A stretch of DNA of 46,551 bases, taken from contig CAYHBG010000003.1 of NCBI GenBank assembly GCA_964354815.1, positions 1 through 46,551 of the forward strand, given 5' to 3'. The notes under the pieces are model-generated. The model did not search any database. It worked only from the letters and a program-made list of their open reading frames with translations, and was not told where the DNA came from. Of the stretch, positions 1 through 46,551 are shown piece by piece. The stretch comes from an uncultured Thermotogae bacterium. Its GTDB lineage: Bacteria > Bipolaricaulota > Bipolaricaulia > UBA7950 > UBA9294. Made by a program: the position numbers and the translations under genes. How positions within the stretch are numbered: position 1 is the stretch's first letter; each line of letters opens with the position of its first letter.

Positions 1-55
1 CCAAACGCCACCCTGATTTTTCAGTCCTCCGAATACTCCTTCAGATCCGGCAGCT
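1..55. repeat. Terminal direct repeat, left copy (55 bp, identical to 46497-46551); indicates a circularly closed contig
   Basis: Bases 1-55 (CCAAACGCCACCCTGATTTTTCAGTCCTCCGAATACTCCTTCAGATCCGGCAGCT) recur exactly as the last 55 bases. The repeat contains the stop codon and last ~10 codons of the minus-strand primase gene. Confidence 0.95.
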
Positions 56-2327
56 TGTGGCCGCCTACACTCGAACTTGTAGACTGAACACCGCCTAACA
101 CAAGTCCGACGAGCATACGCTTTCCTTTCGCCCCCTTCCGATTCGGGACACCCAGCCGGGCCAAAGCCTTCCCGAATTTCTGGGGATTGGGCACCGAAGG
201 GTTGCCCGCTCGAAGCCCCTGGGTCTCGTGTATCCACTCGATGAAGTGCTGGTAGGCCTCCGTCGAGCCCACCTCTCCGGGCCCCTTCCGAGCGCACTCA
301 CGGAACCAGTCGTCGACGGGGTTCATGGACGCCCAGTACTCTGCGGCGGCCTGCTGGACCGCAGGGCAGCTGCCCAGAGATCCGGCCGACTGGAAGGCCC
401 TGAGGCCCTCCAGAACCCACTCCATCACCACGAGCAGGCCGGCCTCGCTCGTGAACATCGACAGAAGGGCCGGGTTGACCGTGCGGGGCTTGTGGTCGGC
501 CGGAACCACGCGGAGCCTTCGCTCGATGCCCGAGTCGAGGAAGTCGGCCTCAGGCGCCACGTTGCCTGCCACCCACGCCGTGAACTGCGGGTTGAACTCG
601 AAGGGGTGACCGAACAGGTGACGACCCAGAAGGCGGTCTCCGCCCGTGAGGTCCTTCATTCGAGCGCCCAGCCGAGCTTTGTTTGGGATCTCACTGCACA
701 CGACAAACCGCACGCCGCGCAGCCGAGCGATGTCGGGAGTGGCGGCCGAGCCCGAAGCGGGTGAGTCGCCCGCGAAGGTCTCGAACGCGACCTTCGCGCC
801 ATACGAACCGAACACCGCGAGCAGCGTGTTGAGGAACGTGCTCTTGCCCGTGCCTCCCTGCCCGTACAGGAAAAGGATCACGTGCTCGATCAGAACGCCG
901 AGCGTGCTCACGCCCACGGCCCTGTGCACGAACGAGAGCACCTCGGGGTCGGGGAACGTGTCGACGAGGAACTCGGCCCACCTCTTCCGAAGCCAGTCGC
1001 TTGGCGTTGCGTAGTACGATCCCATCTGCCTCGTGATGTAGTCGGCCGGCTCCGCCTTCCGAGAGTGGTGCGAGTCAAGCTCCACCACGAACCGCACGTT
1101 GGCTCCGTCGTCCCCCATCAGCAGGAGGTTTGTGTCGGAGTCGAAAACCGAAACGTCCACCAGAACAGAAGGCTCGACCGCTAGCCTGGCCACGATCGCC
1201 TTCACGCGGGACGCCATCCGAAGCTGCCTGCTCATGGCCATCAGACGATCGCGCCGAGTCGCGTCTGCCACCTCCCGCGCCGCGTCGTCGAAAAGAACCT
1301 CGTGGAGCTGGCCCACGGACTGGTGCACCCAGTCCACCGCCACGTGCTCCCACATCCCCCGCGTGTATCGGAACCACTGCTTCGACGCGGGCTCGAACGC
1401 GAAGGAACGAGATGGGTCCATCAGGAAAAGGTCCACGAATCCCTGGTCCGTCCTGTCCTCCGTCAGCGGGTTCGCTCTTCCGAAACGGTCCCATCCCGAA
1501 GCCACGATGCGCTCGACCTCACCGCCCGCCGCAAGAGCGTCTGCCAGCCGCTCGGGCCTCCCGCGGTACACCACCTCCGCGAAAGCGCGCGTGCGCTCCA
1601 TCGCCTCTGCCCTGCTCGTGAGGTACCGGCACATTCGGTTCGCGAAGAAGCGAACGCGGTCGTGGCCGGGGATCTCGTCCACGTTCACGCGCGCTGCCGC
1701 CTCCGGCCTAACGTGCGCCCGAAGGAGGTCTTCGAGCTGCTGCGGCATGCTGGGAACGTCGGCTGGGTCCTGGGGCAGACCGCGCTCCCACACGTAGTGG
1801 ACCCCACTCTTGTGGCGTGACGGAGGAACGACCGCCTGCGCCTTGCCCGGCGTTCGGAGGTCCAGCGCGTATGCCACGTCGTCGTTCTGCCAAGCGATGC
1901 GCTTGGCCTTGAGCGCTAGGTCGGCCGGGAAACGAAGGTAGTAGTGCGCCGAGCTGTCGGTTCGCCGCATGACGGGCGTGTCTGCCGGGCATATTTCGTC
2001 GAGCCAGTCGACGGTCGCGCTCGTGTCGGCGTCGATCACCACCACGCCGGGAGGCGGCACGAGCCCGAGGTTTCCTCCCGCGTCGAGCTGAGCCTGCGCG
2101 GCCGCCATCAGCGTGTCGACCGAGCATCCCTTCCAGCGCTCGGCCGCCGTCGAGTTGAAGCCGGCCGAAAGGGGCCTCTTCCCCGGCGTCTGGCAGTCGA
2201 CCTGCGACCAGCTGCCGTCGGGCTGCCGTACGCCGTGCGTGTGCGGGGACACCCCGCAGAGGTCCACCAGACCAGCCACCCACGCGGGCGGTATGCAATC
2301 CTCAAGAATCCTGATATCGTTCGCCAC
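21..2327 (-). CDS. Bifunctional primase-polymerase / D5-P4-type primase-helicase
   Basis: ORF 21..2486. N-terminal prim-pol-like region (GLVPPPGVVVIDADT). Central D5_N-like region. C-terminal P-loop NTPase with Walker A LFLYGQGGTGKSTF, as in P4/D5 primase-helicases. Likely start is GTG at 2327, preceded by AGAGAGG 4 nt upstream; the alternative is the TTG at 2486 given by the track. Confidence 0.85.
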   Translation of the reverse strand: MANDIRILEDCIPPAWVAGLVDLCGVSPHTHGVRQPDGSWSQVDCQTPGKRPLSAGFNSTAAERWKGCSVDTLMAAAQAQLDAGGNLGLVPPPGVVVIDADTSATVDWLDEICPADTPVMRRTDSSAHYYLRFPADLALKAKRIAWQNDDVAYALDLRTPGKAQAVVPPSRHKSGVHYVWERGLPQDPADVPSMPQQLEDLLRAHVRPEAAARVNVDEIPGHDRVRFFANRMCRYLTSRAEAMERTRAFAEVVYRGRPERLADALAAGGEVERIVASGWDRFGRANPLTEDRTDQGFVDLFLMDPSRSFAFEPASKQWFRYTRGMWEHVAVDWVHQSVGQLHEVLFDDAAREVADATRRDRLMAMSRQLRMASRVKAIVARLAVEPSVLVDVSVFDSDTNLLLMGDDGANVRFVVELDSHHSRKAEPADYITRQMGSYYATPSDWLRKRWAEFLVDTFPDPEVLSFVHRAVGVSTLGVLIEHVILFLYGQGGTGKSTFLNTLLAVFGSYGAKVAFETFAGDSPASGSAATPDIARLRGVRFVVCSEIPNKARLGARMKDLTGGDRLLGRHLFGHPFEFNPQFTAWVAGNVAPEADFLDSGIERRLRVVPADHKPRTVNPALLSMFTSEAGLLVVMEWVLEGLRAFQSAGSLGSCPAVQQAAAEYWASMNPVDDWFRECARKGPGEVGSTEAYQHFIEWIHETQGLRAGNPSVPNPQKFGKALARLGVPNRKGAKGKRMLVGLVLGGVQSTSSSVGGHKLPDLKEYSED

Positions 2328-2517
2328 GTTACCTCTCTTTCCTCGGGGCCCGGTCCGCACGTTGCGGGCCGGGCCTCTGCCGTTTTGGGAGCCGCCACCG
2401 TAGCGCGCCTCAAGAAAGCGCAAGGAGCACCCGATGCGCCCCTTGCGGGGTTGTAGATGGCGTGTAGACTCCCGCTCGTTCGACAACCACTTCGGAGATC
2501 GCAGACGAAATAGACTC

Positions 2518-2575
2518 TCAATCGCGGGCCACGGCGTGCCAGTCCCGAACAGCGCCAGGATGAAGAATCAATCGC
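2518..2575. promoter_or_regulatory. Two direct TCAATCGC boxes (2518-2525, 2568-2575) in the primase-proximal part of the divergent control region
   Basis: The same octamer forms the 5' stem arm of the leader hairpins at 3417-3424 and 4710-4717. Read on the minus strand (GCGATTGA) the two boxes lie upstream of the primase start. Confidence 0.3.
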
Positions 2576-2786
2576 ACGGCATCTCCGAGAGCCGGGACCA
2601 CAAAGGGGTCGTGCGACAGGCGAAGGCCCACACCTCGACGCGCGACCCCGCACGACTCACCGCTGCTCACCGTTCACCGAACGGCGCACCACCGAGTCCG
2701 CGGATCTCCGAGCGACCAGCAGAGACCGGCCCAGCCTACGACATCCAACATCTACAGCGATCCAAGCCGGGGACGCCCGGCCAGGA

Positions 2787-2970
2787 TCGCAGAGATGGAA
2801 TCACGCACGCGCCGCTCGGAACTAGCAGGCACCGATCCCCCGCCGCCATACGGGGACCTCGACGATGCCGGGCCCGGAACGTCAAGCCGCGTGGACAAGC
2901 TGGACCGCCGCAGAGCCCAAGGGAGCGACCACGGTGGGGCGAAGGTCAGTGCGTGATTCCATCTCTGCGA
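2787..2970. repeat. Perfect 22-bp inverted repeat flanking a 140-bp spacer
   Basis: 2787-2808 TCGCAGAGATGGAATCACGCAC is the exact reverse complement of 2949-2970 GTGCGTGATTCCATCTCTGCGA. It lies in the non-coding region between the divergent primase and early genes. Confidence 0.9.
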
Positions 2971-2997
2971 CCCAACAACATTCCGCAGAGAAGGAGA
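2963..2997 (+). promoter_or_regulatory. Leader hairpin A plus Shine-Dalgarno of gene 3004
   Basis: CTCTGCG (2963-2969) / CGCAGAG (2984-2990) form a 7-bp stem around the CA-rich loop ACCCAACAACATTC. AAGGAGA follows directly at 2991-2997, then ATG at 3004. Same architecture as 3418-3455 and 4711-4745. Confidence 0.5.
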
Positions 2998-3003
2998 CAT
3001 AAC

Positions 3004-3339
3004 ATGAAGGGTAGATTTGCTTTCTTCGTCCGGCCTGACCAGATCCGGGTGCACAACCCCGAGCCGAGCGCGATCGACGACCAGTACTACTACCTCGACC
3101 GGTTCCGCGTCATCGCGGAAGACGAGATCGGGGACCGGGTGGTTCACGTCCACCTCTTCGAGAAGGAGGACGAGGCCGAGCGGTTCGCGGACAAGGTCGC
3201 GGTTGCTCACCGGAAGGGCCGGGCGCTGAGCGACGACCACTGGTATCCGATCGATCCCTGCTATGGCTCGAAGGCCTATCAGCGGGACGAGCCGTTCATC
3301 GCGGCCCGCGAACGACGAGAGGAACAGCAGGGCTGGTGA
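3004..3339 (+). CDS. Hypothetical early protein (111 aa)
   Basis: ATG at 3004, 6 nt after AAGGAGA. The 190 residues upstream in the same open frame (2434-3003) are R/P/G-rich junk. The sequence from MKGRFAFFVRPDQ onward is globular-looking. Confidence 0.7.
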   Translation: MKGRFAFFVRPDQIRVHNPEPSAIDDQYYYLDRFRVIAEDEIGDRVVHVHLFEKEDEAERFADKVAVAHRKGRALSDDHWYPIDPCYGSKAYQRDEPFIAARERREEQQGW

Positions 3340-3455
3340 GATTCAGACGGCCGGCAGGGGGTGCGTTAACGGGGACTTACACGCTGCAGCGTGCCCGTGA
3401 AACCCTGCCGGCCCACTCAATCGCACCCAACCTAACAACGCGATTGACTAGGAGA
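3340..3455 (+). promoter_or_regulatory. Two-hairpin leader module B (GATTCAGACG box, hairpin 1, hairpin 2, SD)
   Basis: GATTCAGACG at 3340-3349. Hairpin 1 is GGCCGGCAGGG 3349-3359 / CCCTGCCGGCC 3403-3413 (11 bp, 43-nt loop). Hairpin 2 is CAATCGC 3418-3424 / GCGATTG 3440-3446 with loop ACCCAACCTAACAAC. AGGAGA at 3450-3455, ATG at 3464. Confidence 0.55.
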
Positions 3456-3463
3456 ACAAGACC

Positions 3464-4528
3464 ATGGCAGCAGCATTCGACATCAAGACCGTGACCTACG
3501 CCGACCTCAAGAGCCGGCACGTGTTCCTCCGGGATCTGGACCCGGCCGACAAGGCGGCGGCCATCGCGAAGATCCCCAACAACGAGCGCCTGCGGCTCGC
3601 GAGCCGGAGCGCGTTCCCCGGCACCGACGTGAGCGGGCTCTCATGGGACGAGGCCGCTCGCAAGGGCGGCATCGACTTCACGGTGACGGAGGAGCCGGTC
3701 TACTACACGAACGAGAGCGGGCCGGTTCGGACCATCGTGCCGGGCTACAAGGCGCTCGTCAAAACCGACCGAAAGCCGATCAGCATCGTGTCGGACACCT
3801 ACGGCACGCTGCAGAACAGCGACGCGTTCGCGGGCTTCAAGGCCCTGTGCGACGCGGGCCACGCGGTGCCCGCGAGCGTGTGGTCGAAGGACGGCGGGCG
3901 CCAAGTTGGCGCGGCGGCCCTCATCGGCAACAGCGCCATCGCGGCGCGCATCGGCGGCGACAAGCCGGAGGTCTTCGCGCACTACATCGTGGCGCGCGGT
4001 GGCTTCACGGGGCAGGAGGCGCAGACCTTCGAGCGGTACTGCGCTCAGCTCATCTGCTTCAACGGTGCCGTCACCAACGCACGCGAGAGCCGCGTGTACC
4101 TGAAGCACTCCAGCCGCGTGACTCAGCGCGTGGGCGAGGCCAACGAGGCGCTCGTCAAGCTGATCAACGACGCGGTGGAGGAGCAGCGGCTCTTCGAGGA
4201 GCTTGCGCAGTCGAAGTTCGACCTGCGGCAGTTCCTCGACTTCGCGGACGAGCTGCTGGGCGGCATCGACCTGGAGAAGGCCTCCGATCGGTCGAAGACC
4301 ATCTACTCCAACAAGCTGGAGGAGCTGGGCTTCCTCTTCACCGAGGGCCAGGGCAATCATGGCCAGTCGAAGCTCGACGCCTACTCGGCCATCACCGAGT
4401 GGCTGACGCCGCGACGGGCGCAGTACGAGGACGCCGCGAAGTTCGCGGCCAAGTTCTACAACGACACGGCGGCGGGCGCTCGCCCGGCGCAGCTCCGGGA
4501 GCGGGCCGTTCGCCTGCTCACGAAGTAG
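3464..4528 (+). CDS. DUF932-like phage/plasmid protein (354 aa)
   Basis: The segment GIDFTVTEEPVYY...PGYKALVKTDRKPISIVSDTYGTLQNSDAFAGFKALCDAG...GGRQV follows the pattern I recall for DUF932 / TIGR03299 proteins. Strong SD AGGAGA. Confidence 0.6.
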   Translation: MAAAFDIKTVTYADLKSRHVFLRDLDPADKAAAIAKIPNNERLRLASRSAFPGTDVSGLSWDEAARKGGIDFTVTEEPVYYTNESGPVRTIVPGYKALVKTDRKPISIVSDTYGTLQNSDAFAGFKALCDAGHAVPASVWSKDGGRQVGAAALIGNSAIAARIGGDKPEVFAHYIVARGGFTGQEAQTFERYCAQLICFNGAVTNARESRVYLKHSSRVTQRVGEANEALVKLINDAVEEQRLFEELAQSKFDLRQFLDFADELLGGIDLEKASDRSKTIYSNKLEELGFLFTEGQGNHGQSKLDAYSAITEWLTPRRAQYEDAAKFAAKFYNDTAAGARPAQLRERAVRLLTK

Positions 4529-4537
4529 GAGGCCGAC

Positions 4538-4639
4538 ATGACCTACGAGGACAAGGTGTACCTGTTCTGCATCGTCATCCCGCTGGGCGGGCTGGCGTTT
4601 GCGCTGGCGGTCTTGGGCCTAACAGTCTTCGCGCGGTGA
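4538..4639 (+). CDS. Small single-pass membrane protein (33 aa)
   Basis: ATG at 4538, 6 nt after GGAGG. MTYEDKVYLFCIVIPLGGLAFALAVLGLTVFAR has one hydrophobic helix. Not in the ORF track because it is too short. Confidence 0.45.
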   Translation: MTYEDKVYLFCIVIPLGGLAFALAVLGLTVFAR

Positions 4640-4672
4640 TATGACGCGCGGGGAGATCGAATCATCGGATGT

Positions 4673-4745
4673 GATTCAGACGCCCGGCAGGATGTTCCTG
4701 CCGGGCCACTCAATCGCACCCCAACACACAGCGATTGGAAGGAGA
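4673..4745 (+). promoter_or_regulatory. Two-hairpin leader module C (GATTCAGACG box, hairpin 1, hairpin 2, SD)
   Basis: GATTCAGACG at 4673-4682. Hairpin 1 is GCCCGGCAGGA 4682-4692 / TCCTGCCGGGC 4696-4706 (11 bp, 3-nt loop). Hairpin 2 is CAATCGC 4711-4717 / GCGATTG 4731-4737 with loop ACCCCAACACACA. AAGGAGA at 4739-4745, ATG at 4751. Confidence 0.55.
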
Positions 4746-4750
4746 CGAGC

Positions 4751-4990
4751 ATGACACCGGAAGAGTGCGCCGACAGCGCGCACGCGTTCATCGCCGCGAG
4801 CGGCTCTCCGCTCAAGGCCATCAACAACCTGCGCGCTCTGCAGGCGCGCAAGGAGGAGCTGGGCATCGACGCGGAAGGGATCCGCGATCTCGACGAGCTG
4901 ATCCTGTTCACGCGCAACGTGCGCGAGGCGCAGATCGAGGCGGGCCAGATCTTCAAGCGGGCCCGCGCCGCCCGGAGGTACAAGGCATGA
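4751..4990 (+). CDS. Hypothetical early protein (79 aa)
   Basis: ORF-track ORF with a strong SD. Its stop overlaps the next start (ATGA). Confidence 0.7.
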   Translation: MTPEECADSAHAFIAASGSPLKAINNLRALQARKEELGIDAEGIRDLDELILFTRNVREAQIEAGQIFKRARAARRYKA

Positions 4991-8662: not shown

Positions 8663-8668
8663 GGCAAC

Positions 8669-8752
8669 GGGCTGAGGTTCAGCCCAGGCCGTCGGCTCTC
8701 CGAGTTGGGGGTGGGCCGACGGCCCGGGGACAGCGCGAAGTGGCGCTGTCCC
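8669..8752 (+). other. Three consecutive GC-rich hairpins preceding the terminator
   Basis: H1 is GGGCTGA 8669-8675 / TCAGCCC 8679-8685. H2 is GGCCGTCGGC 8687-8696 / GCCGACGGCC 8715-8724. H3 is GGGACAGCGC 8727-8736 / GCGCTGTCCC 8743-8752. Confidence 0.7.
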
Positions 8753-8763
8753 TGTCATGACGA

Positions 8764-8793
8764 GGGGCCCGGCGCGAGCCGGGCCCCTTTTTT
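8764..8793 (+). terminator. Rho-independent terminator
   Basis: GGGGCCCGGC 8764-8773, loop GCGA, GCCGGGCCCC 8778-8787, followed by TTTTTT 8788-8793. Located between the SSB-like and polymerase genes. Confidence 0.8.
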
Positions 8794-8808
8794 CGTTTGG
8801 AGGTTTCC

Positions 8809-21700: not shown

Positions 21701-21998
21701 CCACCGTGAACTGCACGACGAGCGTGGCCGCCTCGATTTCGGCCAGCGTGTCGTCGGTCGGCCTCGTCGCGTACAACGACGCGACCGCCCCGGTGGAGCG
21801 GTCCCAAGTCACGCGCATGGAACCGCACGACTGGATCGGCATCGTGAAGTCGTTGACCGCGCGGTTCGACCCGAACTCGAACATCTGCGAGGCGCCCGAA
21901 GGCAGCTGCTTGTAGCTGCCCGTGAACTCCGCGGCGGTCGCGGGCAACGCCAGGAAAAGGGCCAGCAGAAATAACACAAAGCGAATCTTCATCATCAT
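18750..21998 (-). CDS. Tailspike/depolymerase-like protein with right-handed beta-helix (1082 aa) and N-terminal signal peptide
   Basis: MMMKIRFVLFLLALFLALPATA/AE. Fibre motif DGSPTLGGPLEANGNSITQV. Pectate-lyase-like start of the beta-helix IVQALAACDAANGGRVILPAGVTTIDA, followed by many short repetitive strands. AGGAGGGA SD. Confidence 0.8.
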   Translation of the reverse strand: MMMKIRFVLFLLALFLALPATAAEFTGSYKQLPSGASQMFEFGSNRAVNDFTMPIQSCGSMRVTWDRSTGAVASLYATRPTDDTLAEIEAATLVVQFTVDQTIVVPQDSTQFRIVVDTSETSTTIPSYALVFCSASAGSGSGGVIGSGLYEDMILSVPAAGDQWLLTDDNNVGSVCDVGGTPATADLWCGWNGTSWVGIGIAGGGIAEVAADGSPTLGGPLEANGNSITQVLDLQTKKLDSRTWFASQYASGSDTGGIVQALAACDAANGGRVILPAGVTTIDATAIASPIINLPADNWGHRGHCSLEGAGSMNATEYNVYGGSTLIINNSADKTAIRVNGSSQVLRGFDMVLPGITANGIGIQIESEAFDAYLTGEHGVANFLLDHVSVIGIDTSLGDLTDTLGTGVLMRFGLKSQIIGGTIKNFDAGIKLTKVLTIASPESNQSNANLLSGVQIRANDVGLLLADQGSCQNITLSGATIEANTIGLSILGTDTTASACLVRDIGTHWENETDNINIVSNHASYIGIAPQMSSAAVGHDIVRSDNNWFGTPDVVIGGDLAGGVNYTGGAEIRLLNSANISVWNGALATTATGEVGYSANCPAWGAAGVHVAGDLCFQSDDTLFVCEPTPATDGICKTEGEWTQFNHGFPISEGGTNYVDSPDGVELYGGRGIVPVFTNGDPDTISFDFDFSKDYASASMGVEQLEFTTTGTGAGGWIGEGATNNPTEFKYSISLAPDTGGADTEYFFPLAPFSLMIAGPTQARTVTFPDANFTAARTDASNTFTGAQINTAEMFADALGVEFETGDALNDCSTFANPGGGIFYDTSEGKLMKCQNNALTALDTGGSGAPGGAIGTVQYHDTGDVLGGDAGMVYDAALDKLTLLGSVVAPTITTTPSDTAEVRLTSATDAQEVAVRLSDNGTTSSMEMVVDDGTGIDQQYMLLNGANAIITTTKPLDVSGFLTGTSYNLTTSGTTHSPSGRSIRGAVHWYTSGSTKTVTLPKIATAGDGVNACFYNMNGAGNLIIDADADDWIRLSGVAGTAGSTIDASTPTTGDFVCMIGRDNGADDEWIVLGKAGDWAAN

Positions 21999-24900
21999 TC
22001 CCTCCTATCTCGGGGCTTTCGCCAGATCAGGTCGCGCGGAGAGCCCATCTCCTCGCCCGGCCAGAAGTTGTCGACCCAGATCTCGGCTTGCGAGAGCGGG
22101 GCCACGCGACCCATCGTGAGACCTTGCATCGTCAGAAGCGTGAGCTTCTCCGCGTCGAACTGCTCGTCCTCGTTGAACACCGCCTGCAGCTCGTCGAACA
22201 TCTGAACGGGCACGTCGAGCATTCGGCTGGCCGGGCTCTTTCCGAGGAACCTTCGCTTCTCGGGAAAAAGCATACCGTCGACCAGCTGGCTGACGCCCGG
22301 AACAGGCGACGCGAGAAGCGAAACGGCGCGCTTGAGTGACCAAGACAGCCACTCCTTCTCGCCCTCGTCGTCCTCGGGAGGGCCCTCCCCGCGGATCAGC
22401 GCGTCGAGCATCGCTGGCACGTAGATGGTCGTGATGATCATCCACGCGGCCGACGCCGGCATGGCCCTTCGGACCGCGCGCCCGTCCACGTCCTCGGTCG
22501 CCTGAAGCCCGCCCGCCATCCGAGCGGCGCGACGCGTTCGCGCGTAGATGTTGGACGTGAACGATCCGAACAGCGTGACCCACCGAACCCATCCCTCGGC
22601 CCGCATGAGCTGGCTCGCTCCCGCGATGGTCGACGATCCCTGCGTGCGCTCGATCGCACGATCTGCCTCTCGGATCGCGCGGGCCATGTCGCCGTGCTGA
22701 GACATCGACTTCATGCGCTGCGCGTCCCACACGATCGAGCTGACCACCGCGTCGGCCGTCGTGATGAGGATGCCCGTGTTGGCGTCGATGCGCGCCTTCA
22801 GCGAGTTTCGGTCCTGCTTCCTCGAAAGCATCTCCCGAAGCTCGCGGTCCTTCGTGATGCCGCGGTGCTGGAGCACTCGGCTGGCCGCGCGGACCTCGCG
22901 CACGAGACCCCAAACACCCTTGCGCGTCGAGTTGGCGATGGCCATGGCCATCCAGTGCGGTCCGACCTCCGAGAATCCGGGAGCGAGGCCCGTCACCTGA
23001 ATGAGGCCGGTCGAGATGCGGTAGGCGAGGCCCGAGTAGATCACGCTCGAACGCGCCAAGCTGTTGATCTTCTCGGCCTTCCGCCATCCGTCAGACGGTT
23101 TGCCGCTCTTCACTCGCGCGGCGTCGTGCACCATCTTCTTGAGCGCGTCCACGTACTCGGGCCCCCACGTCTTTCGGATGACCGACTCGAAGCGGGGGTG
23201 GTTCACGATCTTGTAGGTGTCGCGAACGGCCTTGCGCATCGTGAGGTCGTAGATCACGCGGTCAAGATGCTGAGAGATGACTCCGATGTCGGTGTCGAGC
23301 GGGGCCGAGTACTTGGCCGCGCGCGACTTCACGTGTCCGTGCTCGACCTCGCTCTTCACGAAGTTGTGGCCGAACATCCCCTCCACGTCTGCCTTGTCGT
23401 TGAGGGCCTGCGCTCGTTTGTTGTACTTGCTCCAGTACTTGGCGGGCATGTACCCGCCGTTCATCTTCTGTCCGGTGTGCGCGATGAACTCGCGGCGCTC
23501 CAGCGCGGTCGGGCGGTTGCCCGTCATCTCGAACTCGTGCTCGAACACTCGCCCGCGAAGACCCTCGAACGCGTCCCAGATCTCCTGCGCGATCTTCAGA
23601 TCCTCGACTGTCAGGTGCTGCTGGATCGCCTGCTCCATCACGCCGGGCGTCCAGCCCTTGAGGTCCTCGTTTCCCGCATATCCCTCGTCGCGGCGGTACA
23701 GGTTCGACTCGGTCCCCGAGTGGAGGAACCACATGAGGACCTCGTAGATCCGCACCTTATTCGGCGTGCCGGGGTTGTCGACGCCCGGCAGCGCGATCTC
23801 GCGGTTCATGCGAACCCAGTCGAGCTTGTCCATGGCCGCGAGCCAAGGCTTCGTCAGCTCGTTGGAACCGTCGATGTAGTCGTGCTCGCCTCGGTCGATG
23901 CTCTCGAACACGTACCGCCGAAGCGTGTTGTTCTGGATGTCGTCGCCGCCCGCGAAGTCGATCCAGTCGACGATGCGAAGGAGCATCGCGTCGGCCCACC
24001 GGATCATGTCTCGGAGCGACTGCAGCGACATCGGGTTAGGCCGGCTCGACTGGCCCTGCTTTCGGAGTCCGTTGACCTCCTCCACGCGCGACACGATCTG
24101 GTCCACGGCCGTCTCGATGGCCACCTTCTCGCCCGTGCGGATGTCCTTGACCTCCTGCCTCGAAGCGGTCTCGATGTTTCGGATCACGTCGATGAGCCCG
24201 AGGAACTCGCTGACGGGCATCTTGGACCAGTGCCTCGTGTCGGACTCCGCGTGCATCAGCCAGTCGGGAACCGAGATCGATTCGAGGTGCGACTCCTCTG
24301 CCGACTTCACGAACTCGGCCAGCGACTGAAGACCCTCGGCCTGCTGCGCGGCCACGATGATCTTCTGCAGCTTCACACCGAAAAGCGTCTGGCCCTCGGG
24401 CCGACCGCGGCGGGCCTTGCTGAGGTCGTACCTCTGCATCAGCTTGACGATCTGCGCGGCTCCGTCGAAGCCGGGCGCTCGCAGCTTCGCGAGGTTCTTT
24501 CCCTTCTTGAGCTTGTCGAGCATGCGCCACCCGCGCTCGCTCTCGACCATCGTGCGGTTGATCTCGTCGACCGCGTAGTCGGCCATCATCTGCCGCTCGA
24601 TCTCCACGGCCGCGTCCGCGAACTTCCTGGCGGCGAGCGCCTTGCGAGCGGCCTTTCCCGCGGCGCTCGCGACGGTGTTCCACGCGTGGCGCTGCTTCTT
24701 GAGGTCGCCGGCCAGAACGTCTCCGACCAGCTGGCGGGCCCGGCCTCGGAGGATGCCCGCGCGAAGGCGCTCCTCGATCGCTCGGAGCGTCTGCCCTGCC
24801 ACCCGAGCCTGCTTCCTGCCCTCGACCGCGGCCGTCTGCTGCGCGCGGGCGTTGACCACGAGGGCCTGAAGGTCCGAGATGGCCTGCTGGCTGGCTCCCG

Positions 24901-27900
24901 ACGAAACGGCCTCGGCCAGCGAGGCCTCGGCCAGCGCCACGTCGGATGCCGCGTCAGGCGCCGCAGGAGCCCCCGTGCTGGCCTGGGCCGTGCGGGCGGC
25001 GTCGAGGGCCGGCCCCTCGACCATCTGCCGCAGAGCGGCCAGCTCAGCCAGCGCCAGGGCCTCTCGGTCGGCTCCGGCCGCCGCCTCGGCGTCGGCCGTG
25101 ACCGACTCCTCCGACCACTGGTCGTTGCCCTCGATCTCGCGGTTCACGCGCTCCTGCACGTGCTGGTCGACGGTCCGGGCCTGAAGCATGGACTCGACCA
25201 TGTCTCCGACCGACCCGAAGCCCAGCGACTCGGCCGCCCACTCGGGGTCCATTCCGTTGGCCACCACCAGCCTTCGGCCCGTGCCCTGCGCAGGACGGGC
25301 CAGGAGCGCGTCGATGAGTCCCGGCCCCTGCGTCCCGAGGATCTCTTCGAGGCCGGCCCTGTCGAGGCCCTGGCCCTGCTCCGAACGCTTCAGCCACTCG
25401 ATCGCGGCCCAGCCCGGGTCGGCGGCCACCGCGGCCTCTGCCTCCTGCCGGAACATGTCCATGGCCTGCGCGAGCTGCTCTCGCATTCGCCGCTTCGCGT
25501 CGGGCATGTGGCGGCGGGTCACCCGCGTGAAGGCCTCGCTCTTGTGGCGCACCCACATCTTCTGATACGCGGCCCACTGCGCGTCGGACCAGCCCTCGGG
25601 CCGGTCCGCAAAAAGCGGCTCCGCGATGTCGCCGGCCGCCTCCTCCACGGCCCCTTCAATCAGGAACAGTCTGTCGTACACTTCGCGGATCTCATCCGTG
25701 AGGCTGACCCCCAGCAACTCGCGGGTCTGGCGCAGGCCGCCGTAGGCCTGACGCACCCACGACTTGAACTTGAAGAAGATGCCCTCCATCTCGGGCGTGG
25801 GCGCCTTGCCCTCTGCCAGCCACACCTCGAAGCCGCGAGCGAAAAGCTCGTGCGGCTTGTCGGGCTTGCCCTGGAACATCTGGTCGACGAGCGGGCGAGT
25901 GAGGTGCTCGAAGCTCTGCGCGCCGGTCCAACGCACGACGGTGTCGAGGTCCGCGTTCATCTGCTCGCTCGCGAGACCGAGCTGACGGAACACGACCATC
26001 TGCTGCAGGTACCAGTGCGCCAGCTCGTGCTGGAACCCCGTGAGGTCCGACGCGGACAGCACCGCCGCGTAGGCCTCCTTCTCCTTCAGCGCGATCTGGG
26101 CGCGCGGTCCGTCGGACGCCTGCTTGCCCGCCGAGTCGAGGGTCTCGACGATCTCGCTGATGGCCGCGTCGTCGTAGATCACGTAGTTGGTCGCGGTCTC
26201 TCCGTCCACTGTGCGGCGGCCCGAAATCGACTGCGCGTCGTAGCTGTGGCCCAACACACCGTTCGCAGCGAGTGACTCGGACAGGCCTTGCGGCGTGAAC
26301 TGCTCGCTGGTTGCCAGCTCGTAGATCTGCTCGAACCGCGCGTCCGTTCTCTTGATGAAGTCGAGCGTCGAGTTCGGAACACCTTCGCGCAGCGCGCGGA
26401 TGATGCCTTCGCGAACCTTCGGGTCCTGCTTGCTGAGCGGCAGCTCCCAGATCGCGAGGTCGTGGCTGTCGGGGATGTGGACGGCCGCGATCATTCCCTT
26501 GTTCTTGACGAGCGCGTCGAAGTCGAACGCCTCCATCTCCTCCGCAACGAGCCGCTCCGTCTCGGTCAGCGCAGCCTCGTTCCCCGCTCGTGTCTCCGGC
26601 GTGATGTGGTGTATTCGGGTGTAGCCGTCATCAGCGCTGAGGCGCATCGTCTTGTCGATGTCGGACTTGACTAGAAGCCCGACAGCTCTCCGCAGCGCGT
26701 CCTCTTCGATCGGCACCATCGTACCATCACGACTCGTGGCACCGTTGTAGATGCGAAGCGTGTGGTGCGCGATGATCTGCTCGATCCTTTCTCGGGCCCC
26801 TTCGATGTTTTGAGAGTGAACGGACCTAAGAAGACCCCAGACAGTCGGGGGCGCAATAACCGGATGGCCTTTGTACTGCCAGCCGCCCGACAGCTTGTCG
26901 CGATAGAACCTCGCGATGCCCCGGCTCGTGGTGAAGTAGATGCCCCAGCCGAACGCCTGCGCGCCCTCGCCGGTCCCGATGAAGCTGATGTCGAACTTCT
27001 TGAAGATCGCGGCGGTGCCGTGGAACACGAGCTGGCTGAGGATGTCGAGCTTCGTGGCTGTCTTCGTGCGCGCCTGCTTGTCGTTTACTCCGACTTCGAG
27101 GGGCGTTCCGAGGGGGCTGACGGTTCGCTTGGGCTCGAAGCCGAGTCGCTCGACTGCGGCGCTGTACTCTCGCCAGACCGGCTGATAAAGATCGTTGACG
27201 ACGGCTGACTGTAGATCGGGTGCTCCGGCGGCAGCTCCGTCGACCCAAGTCGTTGCAATATTCGCCGCGCCTCTTCCCGCGTAAATGTCACTGCCATCGT
27301 AGTTGCTCTCCACAGCGTAGTGGCTCAGAACATAGAACCCGTCGCCCAGCGCGGCGGCGATCTTCGTGCCGAACTCGTCGAACATGTCGGCCGTGTAGTC
27401 GCCATCGGCGAAGCGGCGGCCGTCCATGAACGTGAGCCCAAGACCGTCCGGCGACAGCGTGAAGTTGACGCCGTCGGGGTCCTGGGTCGGGTTCACCTTA
27501 GCGTAGAGGGCCTCGACATCGCTCGCGCTGATCTTGCCGCCGCCCTGCCGGTCAAACCGCAGCACGAAGTCCTGCCCGTTGAAGTCGGGCCGGGCCGTGA
27601 TCGAGGCGTCCTGCAGGAACGCGTCGCCCAGCAGCCGAGAGGCCGTCAGGGCCGTCTGCCACGACTCTCCGGGGTACGTGATCACGAGGCTCGGCTCGAC
27701 GCGGTCGAAGGTCCCAAGCGTCTTCGTGATGATGTGGTTGATGCCAAGCCGCCGCAGGACCTTGATCTGCCCGTCCGCGTCCGTGATCGCGGTCAGCACG
27801 CGGTCCTGGTACTCGACGAGGTCGGCCAGCGGGGTGCTCTTCGGGAACCCGTAGCCGCGGCCCTGCCCTGGGTTCACCGACACGGTGGTGGTCGGAGCAC

Positions 27901-30900
27901 GAGCCTCGGCCAGGGCGTCCAGCTCTGCCGCGAACTCGTTGGTCGACCAAGGGTCCGCCTGCACGTCCGACGTGAAGCTGGGGTCGACCTCGCGCCCGAG
28001 CGCGGTGTTGAGCGGAGTCGTCGTGTCGAACTGACCGTTCGCGATCATCTCCTCGATCTGCCCGATCTCGTCCTGCGACTTGAACTGCGCCTCCTCCCAC
28101 GACCCCTCCGTGAACTGGCTCACGGGTTTGGTGTCGCGGGGAGACAGGTGCGTCTTCGCGTAGAACCACAGAAGAGCCTGGATCTCGTCGGGAGCCATCC
28201 CGAAGTGCTGCGCCAGCTGCTCGGTCATCAGCATCGAATAACGGATCGCTTCGGGGCTGGGCATCTGCGCGGTGTCGACGATCGTGCTGATGCCGGTCTT
28301 CTCGCTGGTGACCCAGTCGCGGAACCGGAACCCGAACACCCGCGACATGTGAACGTCCTGCACGGTGAACGGATAGAACTTGTTGTCGGCCCGACGCCTC
28401 GTCAGCGTCATGTAGTTGGACACCTTGAGGCCGCCCGCGTAGGTGCCGGTCTGGTACACCTCCACGATCTTATCGAGCGCCGCGTTGGTGATCTTGATGC
28501 CGAGGCGTCCGGGCCCCTTGCGGATGACCTCGCGCTTGAATCCGTCGGGGTCGGTGGTCGGGTCGAACTTCCGCGCGGCGATCATGATCCGAAGCGTGTT
28601 CTTGAGGTTCTGCCACGTGTTGGTCTGCGCGCTCGTGATGCCGAAGATGATGGAGGCCTCGTGCAGGTTGGCCCGTCCGACCACCCGCGCGATGCCCTCT
28701 CCGAACTGCTTGTACCAGTCGCGCTGCCCTCCCGCCTCTCGCCTCGCCGTCTCCACGAATCCGACCAGCTCGTTGAAGGACGTGGGCCTAACGTCCGCGT
28801 CCAGGCTCTCAAGGTCAGCCGAACGCGCTCCCTCTTTCTCGACCCGAAGCATCTTCTTGGCCAGCTTCGCCGCGCGCTTCACGAGGCTGAGGTCCTCGTC
28901 GTCCGACATCGCCGCGTCCTGCAGCTTGATGTTCTCCTCCGCAAGCTCCTGCGCCGTGAGCCGGACGGCCTCCCCGCGCTTCTTGGGCGCTCCGGGTAGG
29001 TCCGCCAGCACGCTGCTCGTGAGGCCCTCTCGTCCGGTCCTCGCGACCGTGGAGAGGAAAGCCTCCTCCACGCGCCCGACCGGCAGGTTGGTGGCCGGCG
29101 TCTCGTTGGCCGCCTGCACGCGGACCTTCGCCTGCTCCTCCACCTCTTCCTGCGACAGCGGGGCCAGCTCGGGCCCGGCCGCGGAACCGTCGACCTCGCC
29201 CGCTCGGATCGCGCGGACCTGCTCCTTCGACAGCACGTTGAGCGGGTACAGCGCGAAGACTTCCTCGGGCGTGTACAGCTTGCCGGTGGCCTGCGAGACC
29301 ATCGCGGCCAGCGCGCGCACGCGATCGCGCACGGCCATGCCCTCGGTCTCGGCCGTCTTCTCGTCGCGGAAGCCCGTCTTCGCGAGCTGTTCGGCCACCC
29401 GCATGCCGACCTCACCCGCGGAGCTGTCGAGCATGACCTGCATGGCCAGCACGCTGTCCTTTTCCTCGGCGAGGTCGCCGAGGCCGATCTCCTGCATGCT
29501 CTTCTTCTGAGCTTCCATCCGCTGTGCTGGCGTCAGGCCGGCGGGCACGCTGGTGAGGTGCGCTCGGATGTGCGGCATCAGCTTGCTGTTGCTGACGACC
29601 GTCGCGAACTCGCGCGCGGGGATCGCGACCCTTCGTCCCTGGTCTCGGGCGTCCTGAATCCGCTTGCTGACTTCCGGCATAACGGCGTCGGCCTCCTCGG
29701 CGGGAATCGCCTCAGAGTTGAGAGCACCCTGCAGGATGTCTGGGTCCACGTACACGGTCGATCGGTCGGACCCCTCCGTGAGGATCCCGAGGAACTCGCC
29801 GGCCAGACGCGGTGAACGCTCGATCAGCTTGGATGTCGACTCGGTCTTGGCCCAAGCGTCGAAGAACTCGGCGTCGTCCTCCTGCGCGGAAACCTCTTTG
29901 TTCGCGCGGTACGACGCGAGGGGAGCGAACAGACCGCCCGTCAGCATCATGGTCGCGAACACGCTCGCGGCCTCTTCCAGGCCCTGCACGGCGTTAGGCC
30001 CCATCTCCTGCAGGAACACCTCGTCGAGGATCGCTCCGAGAGGCTTGCCCTGGCCTGCTCGCAGTACGGCGTCGCCGATCGCGGGGCTCAGAACGGCCTG
30101 GAAAAACTCCTCGCTGGCCTCCGCGCCAGACGCTTTCGCGGCGGCCCCCAGCCACCCCACGGCCCGGGCAAGTCGTGTCGGGTTCGCGAAGTAGGCGAGC
30201 GCCTCCTTCCGAACGGCAGGCTTGAGCATGCCGGGGATCGCCTTGGCCAGGAGCGGCTTCCCGAACACGTTCCACTGGAACTTCGCTCCCATGAACTCGA
30301 TGCCCGTCTCGACGGTGCCGAAGGTGATCGCAGCGAGCTTCGTCGCGAGGGCGTCGGGGTCCTCGCCCGCCTCGATCATGTCGCCGTACGCGGATCCGGT
30401 CGAGCGCCTCCACATCGACACGACGGCCCCGATCGCGAACGCGGACGGCAGAATGACGAGGGGTGCCGTGGTCGCGCCGATGGCCGCTCCGGGCGCAGCG
30501 CCAACGCCTGCGGTCGGGGCGCCAAACAACGCGGCGCCTGCCGCCGCGCCGCCCACGATCGCGAAGGGCACCGCCACCCGGGCGGCCTTCGCTCCCTCGA
30601 TCGCGGGGTCCACGAACATGGTGTCGGCCATCCCGCCCAGCGTTTCGAGGATGCGACGGTCGAACGCAGACTTGGGCTGTCCGCCCGTCTCCGCGATCTG
30701 TTTGTTGATCCGGCTGATCTCGCCGGCCACCTCCCACGCGGGGGCGCCGCGAAACAGATCCTCGTACACGCGGCTCTTCTCCAGCTGCAGGCGGCTGCGC
30801 TGCAGAGCGCCGGCCACCACCGCGGGCTTGTCGATCACGTCGCGCATGAGCTGGGCCGCGCCCTCGAAGAAGGTCGAGTCGTCTGCCCCGTAGAAGTTGG

Positions 30901-46496: not shown

Positions 46497-46551
46497 CCAA
46501 ACGCCACCCTGATTTTTCAGTCCTCCGAATACTCCTTCAGATCCGGCAGCT
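46497..46551. repeat. Terminal direct repeat, right copy (identical to 1-55)
   Basis: Exact 55/55 identity with the first 55 bases. Confidence 0.95.

Follow-up and report, generated by a model that had tools for sequence, protein, structure and literature searches.

The first three intergenic gaps of an early operon in the window (the whole stretch of DNA analysed, 46,551 nucleotides), downstream of a conserved promoter-like site, carry inverted repeats close to the SD sequences of the genes that start at 3004 (gene A), 3464 (a DUF932 gene) and 4751 (gene C). Their presence raises the question of whether these elements act as RNA or as DNA, and what they do for the genes that follow. A sequence-only reading had reported a hairpin adjoining each SD sequence and, in the second and third copies (B and C), another hairpin upstream. 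The coordinates and sequences of these hairpins match, and the two differences between B and C in each arm of the upstream hairpin pair mutually and are compensatory, as had been claimed. Copies B and C comprise the following features.

Copy B (DUF932 gene)
3335-3348, plus strand: 5' strand of the lower stem and AC side of the 2x2 internal loop (GGTGAGATTCAG)
3349-3413, plus strand: upper stem (hp1), 11 bp with a variable 43-nt apex; arm GGCCGGCAGGG (3349-3359) pairs with CCCTGCCGGCC (3403-3413), and CACT comes next
3414-3427, plus strand: internal loop CA and 3' strand of the lower stem (CTCAATCGCACC), common to hp2
3417-3447, plus strand: SD-proximal hairpin (hp2), TCAATCGC, 15-nt G-free loop, GCGATTGA; core CAATCGC (3418-3424), loop (3425-3439), GCGATTG (3440-3446)
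3450-3455, plus strand: SD sequence AGGAGA of the DUF932 gene (ATG 3464)
Copy C (gene C)
4659-4665, plus strand: S1, GAATCAT, as placed by the MFE fold
4667-4681, plus strand: 5' strand of the lower stem (to GATTCAG) and internal loop AC
4682-4706, plus strand: upper stem (hp1), 11 bp with a TGT loop; GCCCGGCAGGA (4682-4692), TGT, TCCTGCCGGGC (4696-4706), and CACT comes next
4707-4721, plus strand: internal loop CA and 3' strand of the lower stem (CTCAATCGCACCC), common to hp2
4710-4738, plus strand: SD-proximal hairpin (hp2), TCAATCGC, 13-nt G-free loop, GCGATTGG; core CAATCGC (4711-4717), loop (4718-4730), GCGATTG (4731-4737)
4739-4745, plus strand: SD sequence AAGGAGA of gene C (ATG 4751)

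The sequence GATTCAGACG occurs at 3340-3349 in copy B and at 4673-4682 in copy C, its final G being the first base of the hp1 arm. In both copies the MFE fold contains the lower stem. Read in a fixed register, that of copy B has two unpaired, two paired, one unpaired, four paired, one unpaired and four paired positions, and covaries; that of copy C has two unpaired, two paired, one unpaired, four paired, one marked ':', two paired, one unpaired and two paired positions. S1 of copy C and GTGATTC (4671-4677), in the 5' strand of the lower stem, can form an additional competing helix. The stop codon of gene A (3337-3339) lies inside the 5' strand of the copy B lower stem, and an upstream stop codon is found in this strand or at most 7 nt from it in 8 of 11 copies. 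An ORF of 37 aa (4641-4754) was rejected as coding: it is not conserved, and most or all frames of the relatives are interrupted by stops.

Copies A, B and C and their relatives all form a long stem of about 23-26 helical positions, with a hypervariable apex of 3 to about 140 nt. A conserved symmetric 2x2 internal loop (A.A plus Y.Y; AC/CA) divides this stem in B, C and most relatives, whereas copy A has a near-perfect helix at the place of the loop. The SD-proximal hairpin of every copy takes its 5' arm, along with the loop start ACC(C), from the 3' strand of the long stem. Because of this shared strand, the full long stem and hp2, which overlap by 8-12 nt, cannot form at once. In 11 of 12 copies the long stem is the more stable by 0.7-11.9 kcal/mol; in copies B and C of the window the two folds are almost isoenergetic, the long stem being ahead by 0.7 and 1.5 kcal/mol (ddG -0.7 and -1.5). 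Thus both hairpins of the sequence-only reading are present, but hp1 continues into a covarying lower stem and the pair amounts to only one of two competing folds. Similarly, the ACCC that begins the loops is conserved as described, but is largely explained by pairing with upstream GGU(G) in the long stem rather than by a loop-specific ligand. Complementarity of ACCCAAC to 16S RNA is unnecessary as an explanation, since ACC pairs with the upstream GGU. A trans-acting partner of the loop was also rejected, GTTGGGT being neither enriched nor present in the leader, as were AAN repeats of the Hfq/Crc type, which by eye are inconsistent between copies.

Copy A, which had been described as a lone hairpin, does contain that hairpin, but a long-range helix of its own takes the place of the upstream hairpin.

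Copy A (gene A)
2757-2790, plus strand: H0, a small version of the long stem seen in B and C; GCGATCC/GGATCGC, AA/CA internal loop, GCCGGG-GACG-CCCGGC
2784-2808, plus strand: 5' strand of the long-range helix (GGATCGCAGAGATGGAATCACGCAC), resembling the 3' arm of the hairpin plus the SD sequence
2809-2948, plus strand: hypervariable apex inside the helix, from the alignment of relatives
2949-2973, plus strand: 3' strand of the long-range helix, with anti-SD UUCC (2957-2960), the entire 5' arm of hairpin A and the loop ACCC
2962-2991, plus strand: hairpin A, TCTCTGCG, 14-nt G-free loop, CGCAGAGA; core CTCTGCG (2963-2969), loop (2970-2983), CGCAGAG (2984-2990)
2991-2997, plus strand: SD sequence AAGGAGA of gene A (ATG 3004)

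The 25 positions of 2784-2808 and 2949-2973 pair with one mismatch. Across five lineages this helix is 94.8% paired, compared with 30-49% in slid registers, and both sides have changed in seven pairs; the arms are 140 nt apart in the window, and the span from arm to arm varies between lineages from 86 to 180 nt. H0, the 3' strand of which overlaps the 5' strand of the long-range helix, has double changes among its RNAalifold pairs (columns 297-330). The local fold of hairpin A extends further, UUCC (2957-2960) pairing with GGAG (2993-2996) of the SD sequence, and such anti-SD pairing recurs in L026, L032, L034 and L024. To judge from its sequence, the 5' strand at 2784-2808 may act as an anti-sequestor. 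Copy A thereby resembles systems of SD sequestration and anti-sequestration such as the alternative folds of lambda cIII, in that UUCC pairs with either the SD sequence or an upstream GGAA.

These elements belong to a clade of uncultured high-GC podovirus-like phages represented by assemblies only. The DUF932 protein is 38-83% identical across nine syntenic relatives in public assemblies, all of which carry equivalent elements; the SRA assemblies SRR32919007, SRR26786814 and SRR31065123 are among the sources of the relatives. At these nine loci the sequences of the stems have been swapped while pairing is retained, which indicates selection on structure, not on sequence, as the sequence-only reading had proposed. 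Among cultured phages, neither a DNA similarity search nor a search with the DUF932 protein gave a match. The polymerase, terminase and primase have distant matches only. Scans of IMG/VR at the DNA level (with a 15-mer, the hp2 pattern and the copy A leader) yielded chance matches or none, and a scan with a single protein yielded none; a protein-alignment scan found one relative, L284, at 33%. No Rfam family matched the whole window at the gathering score, the region 2300-4800 gave only chance-level matches (E at least 0.5), and a tRNA/tmRNA search found none. The inverted repeats sit in a regulatory region near a divergent promoter and a primase gene. Transcription of the early genes may begin at the following site.

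2443-2470, plus strand: candidate early promoter, TTGCGG, 16 nt, TAGACT, with the direct repeat TGTAGA-N5-TGTAGA

The position and spacing of this candidate are kept in L026, L032 and L034 (TTGACG/TTGACA ... TAGAGT/TAGATT), and a consensus scan did not flag 2443-2470. With this candidate as promoter, the leader of gene A would measure about 520 nt, and the elements would be intercistronic in an early polycistronic transcript. A promoter within the module itself was rejected: the stretch just 5' of hp2 is a GC-rich stem with no conserved -10. The leader at 2477-2783, of about 300 nt, is highly conserved and structured.

From the window alone, the evidence for structure is thin: short motifs are not enriched, a generic pattern of hairpin and then SD sequence occurs 28 times compared with 7-23 (average about 13) in shuffles, and RNA folding z-scores are only -2.5 to -3.3. 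Structural conservation with compensatory changes was followed through at least nine lineages; the comparison used fixed-register alignments and scripts, since MAFFT does not align the diverged arms consistently. In the SD-proximal hairpin, 102 of 102 cells are paired (six positions in each of 17 distinct copies, among which 11 different stem sequences occur), compared with 48.6 +/- 7.1 in a partner-swapped control. The long stem of the B/C type has 87.2% of its cells paired versus 26-41% in slid registers, with both sides changed in 12 of 18 pairs. For the flanks of the long stem in all copies, read in a fixed register, 138 of 168 cells are paired versus 81 +/- 9 after swapping of partners. 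At least five of the six flank pairs are formed in all 11 phage copies anchored via the hp1 core; as a negative control, the 238 unrelated hp1-core hairpins among the genomic and metagenomic matches listed form this many in 13 cases, and none of these 238 listed matches combines the lower stem, hp2 and an SD sequence. At the base of hp1 (N-CCGG/CCGG-N) and in the AC/CA loop the sequence hardly varies and does not covary, and the loops of the SD-proximal hairpins contain no G in 183 nt. In some lineages hp2 is small-looped and lies 6-25 nt from the SD sequence with a third hairpin between them, so the SD-adjoining position is not universal.

The non-Watson-Crick pairs of hp2 comprise six G.U and no A.C, which fits an RNA of the plus strand. 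Cruciform DNA, which the sequence-only reading had kept as an option, is unlikely on this account and because every copy is on the coding strand and adjoins an SD sequence. A feature of the DNA, whether cruciforms or repeated sites for a regulator or replication protein, would suit the location of the repeats by a divergent promoter and a primase gene, and has a precedent in the ESAS, which were read as protein sites on DNA (PMC3203893). These belong to the SAS/ESAS of Cluster K mycobacteriophages, repeated motifs of unassigned function that are placed directly before the starts of some non-structural genes and include the SD sequence and, in half of the cases, an inverted repeat with a variable spacer (PMC3203893). 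The ESAS arms follow one consensus per genome, with departures that do not support RNA pairing (PMC3203893). In the phages studied here, the arms differ between copies and between lineages in a compensatory manner and the 13-bp SAS (GGGATAGGAGCCC) is absent. Stems that are wholly different and yet paired are the opposite of a shared binding motif; in addition, the elements are without exception oriented like the mRNA, and 140 nt separate the two arms in copy A. We regard a DNA-level role as highly improbable.

At the RNA level, termination comes to mind, since the stems are strong, GC-rich and directly after stop codons. The sequence-only reading had set ordinary terminators aside, and rightly: no T-tract follows either hairpin, hp1 being succeeded by CACTCAATCGC and hp2 by the SD sequence, and a scan for terminators on the plus strand flagged neither. 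Factor-independent termination at U-less hairpins has been proposed for high-GC bacteria, and an expression gradient along the early operon is plausible. The stems might therefore be attenuators or structural insulators that pause or partly terminate RNA polymerase or block 3' exonucleases, a reading that we consider improbable, as we do its corollary that the small hairpin merely shields the RBS from upstream structure. Canonical U-tract terminators elsewhere in these genomes show that hp1 differs from the type usual in the clade, and attenuation would leave the covarying lower stem, the shared strand and the conserved internal loop unexplained. One such canonical terminator (8764-8793) lies 9 nt upstream of the polA SD sequence, leaving no space for a promoter, and the relatives likewise have a terminator ahead of the polymerase gene. 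Read-through is needed at this site, and processive antitermination of the kind directed by put (HK022) and nut (lambda) would provide it: the structure of the nascent RNA, by itself or aided by a phage protein, would alter RNA polymerase to this end. Sites of the put kind are paired, covarying stem-loops repeated in early operons, and, as here, put and nut lie in early transcripts with terminators downstream. However, put requires two stems that form together, whereas formation of the full long stem precludes hp2; each operon has three SD-bound copies rather than one directly after the promoter; the hypervariable apex of hp1, with no conserved apical loop, is unlike the loops of boxB; and partial read-through would be enough for polA expression. 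Antitermination is thus a quite unlikely role for these elements.

Among the roles suggested by the sequence-only reading, the best remaining candidate is an RNase III-type site together with a 5' stabiliser. On our analysis the element most likely directs cutting of the mRNA and tunes its stability and translation, comparable to the RNase III sites of T7. The T7 early polycistronic precursor has five RNase III signals (PMC3867540). As here, these signals (R0.3, R0.5, R1, R1.1 and R1.3) are related irregular hairpins between the first genes of the early operon, with upper and lower stems, an internal loop between them and about two helical turns, in which sequence diverges while the fold stays. 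The idealised E. coli substrate of RNase III is 22 bp, or two helical turns (PMC3867540); the long stem has the length of such an irregular hairpin (about 20-22 bp), and B, C and most relatives have an internal loop. In RNase III sites such loops limit cutting to one strand, and the 3' hairpins left behind, which protect the upstream product of T7 cleavage, are stability determinants (PMC3867540); here, cleavage would have the same outcome.

The elements would act in cis as RNA in a polycistronic early transcript. The long stem would fold first during transcription and be the stabler fold, leaving the G-free CA-rich tract, the 3' arm of the hairpin and the SD sequence single-stranded, so that translation would be on. 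It would also be a T7-type substrate for a double-strand-specific endonuclease, the obvious candidate being RNase III of the host. Cutting in or close to the internal loop, on its 3' side, would free the shared strand, and the short hairpin would then form at a distance of 1-3 nt from the new 5' end: hp2 begins 3 nt past the upper stem, so that a cut in the loop gives a nearly flush 5'-terminal hairpin. As a 5' stabiliser, the short hairpin would guard the cistron downstream, while the 3' end of the upstream cistron would be guarded by the upper stem. Like the stabilisers of ompA and papA, or SP82 polypurine and ermC, the hairpin is short, stable and directly 5' of a strong SD sequence. RppH of Bacillus subtilis does not act unless two or more 5' nucleotides are unpaired, and a stem-loop at the 5' terminus makes mRNA more stable (PMC3997798); a hairpin at the 5' end would block decay that depends on this end (PMC3997798). 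In contrast to the known stabilisers, hp2 would become 5'-terminal only after the putative processing, and it competes with another helix; in our model the stabiliser geometry fits only if the cut lies in the 3' side of the internal loop.

Several features depart from the T7 signals: the apex is hypervariable (3 to about 140 nt), the 2x2 loop (A.A plus Y.Y) adjoins an invariant CCGG, and the strand common to the SD-proximal hairpin makes an X-X'-X switch that is no part of a T7 signal. RNase III is governed mostly by antideterminants, and the near-invariant CCGG base and AC/CA loop fit a sequence-specific binder better. In copy A, the refolded hairpin would pair the SD sequence (UUCC with GGAG), and processing is predicted by the model to lower translation of the first gene, the opposite of its effect in the classic cases of T7 0.3 and lambda N. 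In the leaders of lambda N and adhE, which RNase III activates, there is likewise a long helix, as copy A has for the first early gene, but there the RBS is concealed by the long structure until cleavage turns translation on, whereas in copy A the long helix frees the SD sequence and the local hairpin hides it. The reading that we favour, at somewhat less than even chances, is that of an intercistronic processing signal like those of T7, in which cutting or opening the long stem frees a small hairpin beside the SD sequence.

A bistable riboregulator that is read by protein and not cleaved, in which a phage or host RNA-binding protein shifts the balance of folds to time early translation, is possible with a lower probability. 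In such a regulator the long stem would be the state with an open RBS and the SD-proximal hairpin the state in which the RBS is hindered (sequestered in copy A). Near-isoenergetic folds in the window copies, the alternative hairpin of copy A that pairs the SD sequence in five of five lineages, the strictly G-free loops and the near-invariance of the hp1 base and AC/CA loop all suit such a switch, as do the stop codons at the lower stem, where terminating ribosomes could flip it. The target might be the invariant internal loop with its CCGG base or the CA-rich tract, a tentative suggestion in either form. The early proteins have no recognisable RNA-binding or nuclease domain, no binder can read hp2 because its stems and loops are fully different between lineages, and a switch alone leaves a helix of about 25 bp with a hypervariable apex unexplained.

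It is conceivable, if unlikely, that the modules are an undescribed family of self-contained RNA switches in which chained exclusive helices make an early-gene timer. Speculatively, the chains would run from H0 through the long helix to the SD hairpin in copy A, and from S1 through the lower stem to hp2 in copy C. They could perhaps be flipped by a nuclease, by a terminating ribosome or by protein recognition of the invariant AC/CA-CCGG junction. On this view, processing of the copy A helix might also release the leader at 2477-2783 as a separate phage non-coding RNA. Post-transcriptional control of early genes is well described for only a few model phages (T7, lambda and T4). The first cistrons of this phage group are wired by covarying RNA, a probable processing stem being joined to an SD-proximal hairpin through a shared strand. 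If the stems are ordinary RNase III sites, they would be a tidy and unsurprising extension of the T7 paradigm. If the proposed arrangement is confirmed, Rfam would gain a new family of cis-regulatory RNA, and the early operons of this group of phages would have a usable marker. The elements would then also exemplify a compact design from nature whereby cutting or opening an RNA resets the 5' end of the cistron that follows.

Taken alone, the window offers weak evidence for the structured modules that precede the starts at 3004 (gene A), 3464 (the DUF932 gene) and 4751 (gene C), here copies A, B and C, because short module motifs are not enriched within it, a hairpin followed by a Shine-Dalgarno sequence (SD) is a common pattern in its G+C-rich DNA, and the folding z-scores of the module regions are only about -3. 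The sequences and coordinates given by the sequence-only reading were all correct. Ten homologues of the DUF932 protein (38-83% identical) were identified in public assemblies, on contigs syntenic with the window, and modules of the same type occur there in the leaders of the first gene and the DUF932 gene and in the next intergenic gap. Across these syntenic relatives the arms remain paired despite swapped stem sequences, so that the structure is kept, as had been proposed from the three copies.

The window, a 46.5-kb contig of 65% G+C, looks like a complete podovirus-like phage genome, and an exact 55-bp terminal direct repeat (1-55 and 46497-46551) is consistent with a complete assembly of a circular or terminally redundant genome. 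Its main features are:

21-2330, minus strand: PrimPol/D5-type primase-helicase
from 3004, plus strand: early and replication block (DUF932 protein, DUF2800 nuclease, family A DNA polymerase, SNF2 helicase)
21995-31267, minus strand: 3090-aa ORF, a polyvalent protein with a weak match, below the Pfam cut-off, to ART-PolyVal (ADP-ribosyltransferase domain of polyvalent proteins)

All remaining genes are on the minus strand, and the minus-strand genes include one weak, sub-threshold nozzle-like match. No DNA-level similarity to any cultured phage was found for the window, and the closest proteins to its own are 26-47% identical. One relative, L026, encodes beside its terminase genes (62-283, minus strand) a small protein whose hairpin domain is of the Acb2/Tad1 type, an anti-CBASS/Thoeris sponge family.

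The SD-proximal hairpin (hp2) has stem variants CAAUCGC, CUCUGCG, UCUAGGCG, CUAGGC, CUAUGCG, CUGGGC, UAGGCGG, GAUCGG and GCCAG, and all 102 cells are paired at six loop-proximal positions in 17 distinct copies (partner-swapped control, 48.6 +/- 7.1). G, which makes up 31.7% of the background, is absent from the 183 nt of large hp2 loops; other lineages have a small loop and a CA-rich tract (CUAAC, CAACAC) 3' of the hairpin instead. The 38%-identical relative L044 shares the plan in wholly different sequence, with a 16-bp lower stem and the GAUCGG hairpin. In L284, a DUF932 relative at 33% identity identified in IMG/VR, a G-free hairpin with a CA loop (AAGGGCC...GGCCTT) abuts the SD (2900-2997), and an intercistronic hairpin of its own, AGCCCCACTAGC-gcaat-GCTAGTGGGGCT, is repeated twice (~3985-4035 and ~4350-4400); the module habit therefore reaches past the close clade.

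In the upstream hairpin (hp1), the differences between copies B and C are compensatory, as had been noted. Both hairpins of the two-hairpin module originally described are present, but the element is larger: outward from the base of hp1, in fixed register, nearly every copy has two unpaired positions followed by 6-12 pairs, a lower stem set off by a 2x2 internal loop that is usually AC opposite CA. This long stem is paired in 87.2% of cells in a gapless 13-copy alignment, a figure that drops to 26-41% with the partner shifted 1-3 columns, and 12 of its 18 pairs have changed on both sides. At least five of six flank pairs were formed in all 11 likewise-anchored phage copies but, among the matches listed, in only 13 of the 238 unrelated genome or metagenome hairpins that share their hp1 core and loop flanks. 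The hp1 base, CCGG/CCGG, is nearly invariant. A motif, CAACTAACGA, recurs in relatives 5' of several modules, where its AACG is part of the lower stem. Two relatives, L030 (~2040-2075) and L032 (~2393-2435), carry a tRNA-like fragment, made up of the T-arm GGTTCGATTCC and a CCA-bearing acceptor 3' strand, after which comes CAACTAACGAG; ARAGORN found no tRNA.

In all copies the long stem uses as its 3' strand a segment that takes in the entire hp2 5' arm together with ACC(C), the first bases of the loop, and the two structures are therefore mutually exclusive, an X-X'-X design. The loop start is conserved, as first observed, and pairing to a GGU(G) further upstream accounts for most of this conservation. 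Folded with full context, 11 of 12 B/C-type copies prefer the long stem, with a margin of 0.7-11.9 kcal/mol that is just 0.7 and 1.5 kcal/mol in copies B and C of the window; the predicted long-stem fold leaves the SD, the CA-rich tract and the 3' arm of hp2 all unpaired. Other sites in and around the modules are:

2443-2470: promoter-like site, TTGCGG-16 nt-TAGACT, with direct repeat TGTAGA-N5-TGTAGA, ~520 nt 5' of gene A
2757-2790: H0, a hairpin resembling a miniature B/C long stem (7-bp outer helix, AA/CA internal loop, GCCGGG-GACG-CCCGGC)
3337-3339: stop codon of the upstream cistron at the lower-stem 5' strand
4659-4665: S1, a competing helix in copy C

Action at the DNA level is unlikely; every copy is oriented with the mRNA strand and adjoins an SD, and the non-Watson-Crick cells of hp2 are six G.U and never A.C (22 G.U versus 12 A.C with all helices pooled, the A.C cells mostly in fixed mismatch columns). 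No ORF is conserved across the modules of the relatives compared. A 37-aa ORF through module C (4641-4754), which begins 1 nt past the previous stop and finishes in an ATGA overlap with gene C, is unconserved in relatives and probably fortuitous.

Copy A has a differently built counterpart of the long stem, a helix of 25 positions, one of them mismatched (2784-2808 with 2949-2973), that spans a variable 140-nt apex and is 94.8% paired in five lineages, with seven pairs altered on both sides. Its local hairpin extends in the folds of all five lineages, UUCC (2957-2960) pairing with GGAG of the SD, and the long helix's upstream arm, GAUGGAAUC, is predicted to mimic the SD and thereby free it. 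The 3' strand of H0 overlaps the long helix, creating a chain of three mutually exclusive helices. The promoter-like site, whose position and spacing are kept in the relatives L026, L032 and L034, may be an early promoter with operator, and the modules would then sit within the early transcript. The ~300-nt leader between this site and copy A (2477-2783) exceeds the neighbouring proteins in nucleotide conservation and appears structured, RNAalifold predicting 67 pairs, 18 with double changes, from four sequences; it has no Rfam match and could be a phage non-coding RNA freed by processing. Between the primase start and the candidate promoter, a strong plus-strand hairpin with a T-tract (2345-2386) is kept in relatives; its minus-strand counterpart is a hairpin of the 5' UTR, before the primase SD.

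The long stems match bacterial RNase III substrates in size and shape, with about two helical turns and internal loops; in RNase III sites, such as the five signals of the T7 early precursor, internal loops confine cleavage to a single strand, and a stabilising hairpin is left at the 3' end (PMC3867540). Cutting of the internal loop on its 3' side would release the shared strand. Since hp2 starts 3 nt past hp1, it would then form nearly flush with the new 5' end, arranged like a 5' stabiliser (PMC3997798); the SD of copy A would also be masked by this refolding. Because of this stem size and shape and the hp2 geometry, we tentatively favour a processing-triggered refolding element, at slightly less than even confidence. 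The analysis establishes the helices with their covariation, shared strand, energies and geometry; the cleavage, the enzyme responsible and whether expression would rise or fall are putative. The main rival, a protein-operated switch independent of cleavage, is less probable, and is kept in contention by the invariant AC/CA-CCGG junction, which points to a sequence-specific reader. The absence of a T-tract 3' of every module hairpin agrees with the earlier view that these are not ordinary terminators, and termination without a U-tract is unlikely. Three hairpins and then a canonical intrinsic terminator with T6 (8764-8793) occupy 8668-8808, the terminator lying just 9 nt 5' of the DNA polymerase gene's SD (gene start, 8809), and relatives are arranged alike; polymerase expression therefore needs read-through. 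Antitermination by the modules would suit this arrangement, but fits poorly with mutually exclusive stems in three copies that are each bound to an SD. In 8 of the 11 B/C-type copies the upstream cistron's stop codon falls within the 5' strand of the lower stem or at most 7 nt before it, so that a terminating ribosome could also melt that stem; simple genome compaction is an equally good explanation of the position.

No Rfam family matched the element. The nearest described look-alikes in phage genomics are the start-associated sequences (SAS) and extended SAS (ESAS) of Cluster K mycobacteriophages; departures in the arms of the ESAS do not favour pairing (PMC3203893), and this is the decisive difference from the module arms, which stay paired. 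Functionally closest are the T7 early RNase III sites, to which the module adds a strand shared with the SD-proximal hairpin, a hypervariable apex and an invariant junction. That these phages carry a new RNA element is well supported, and the mechanism proposed for it from sequence is plausible.
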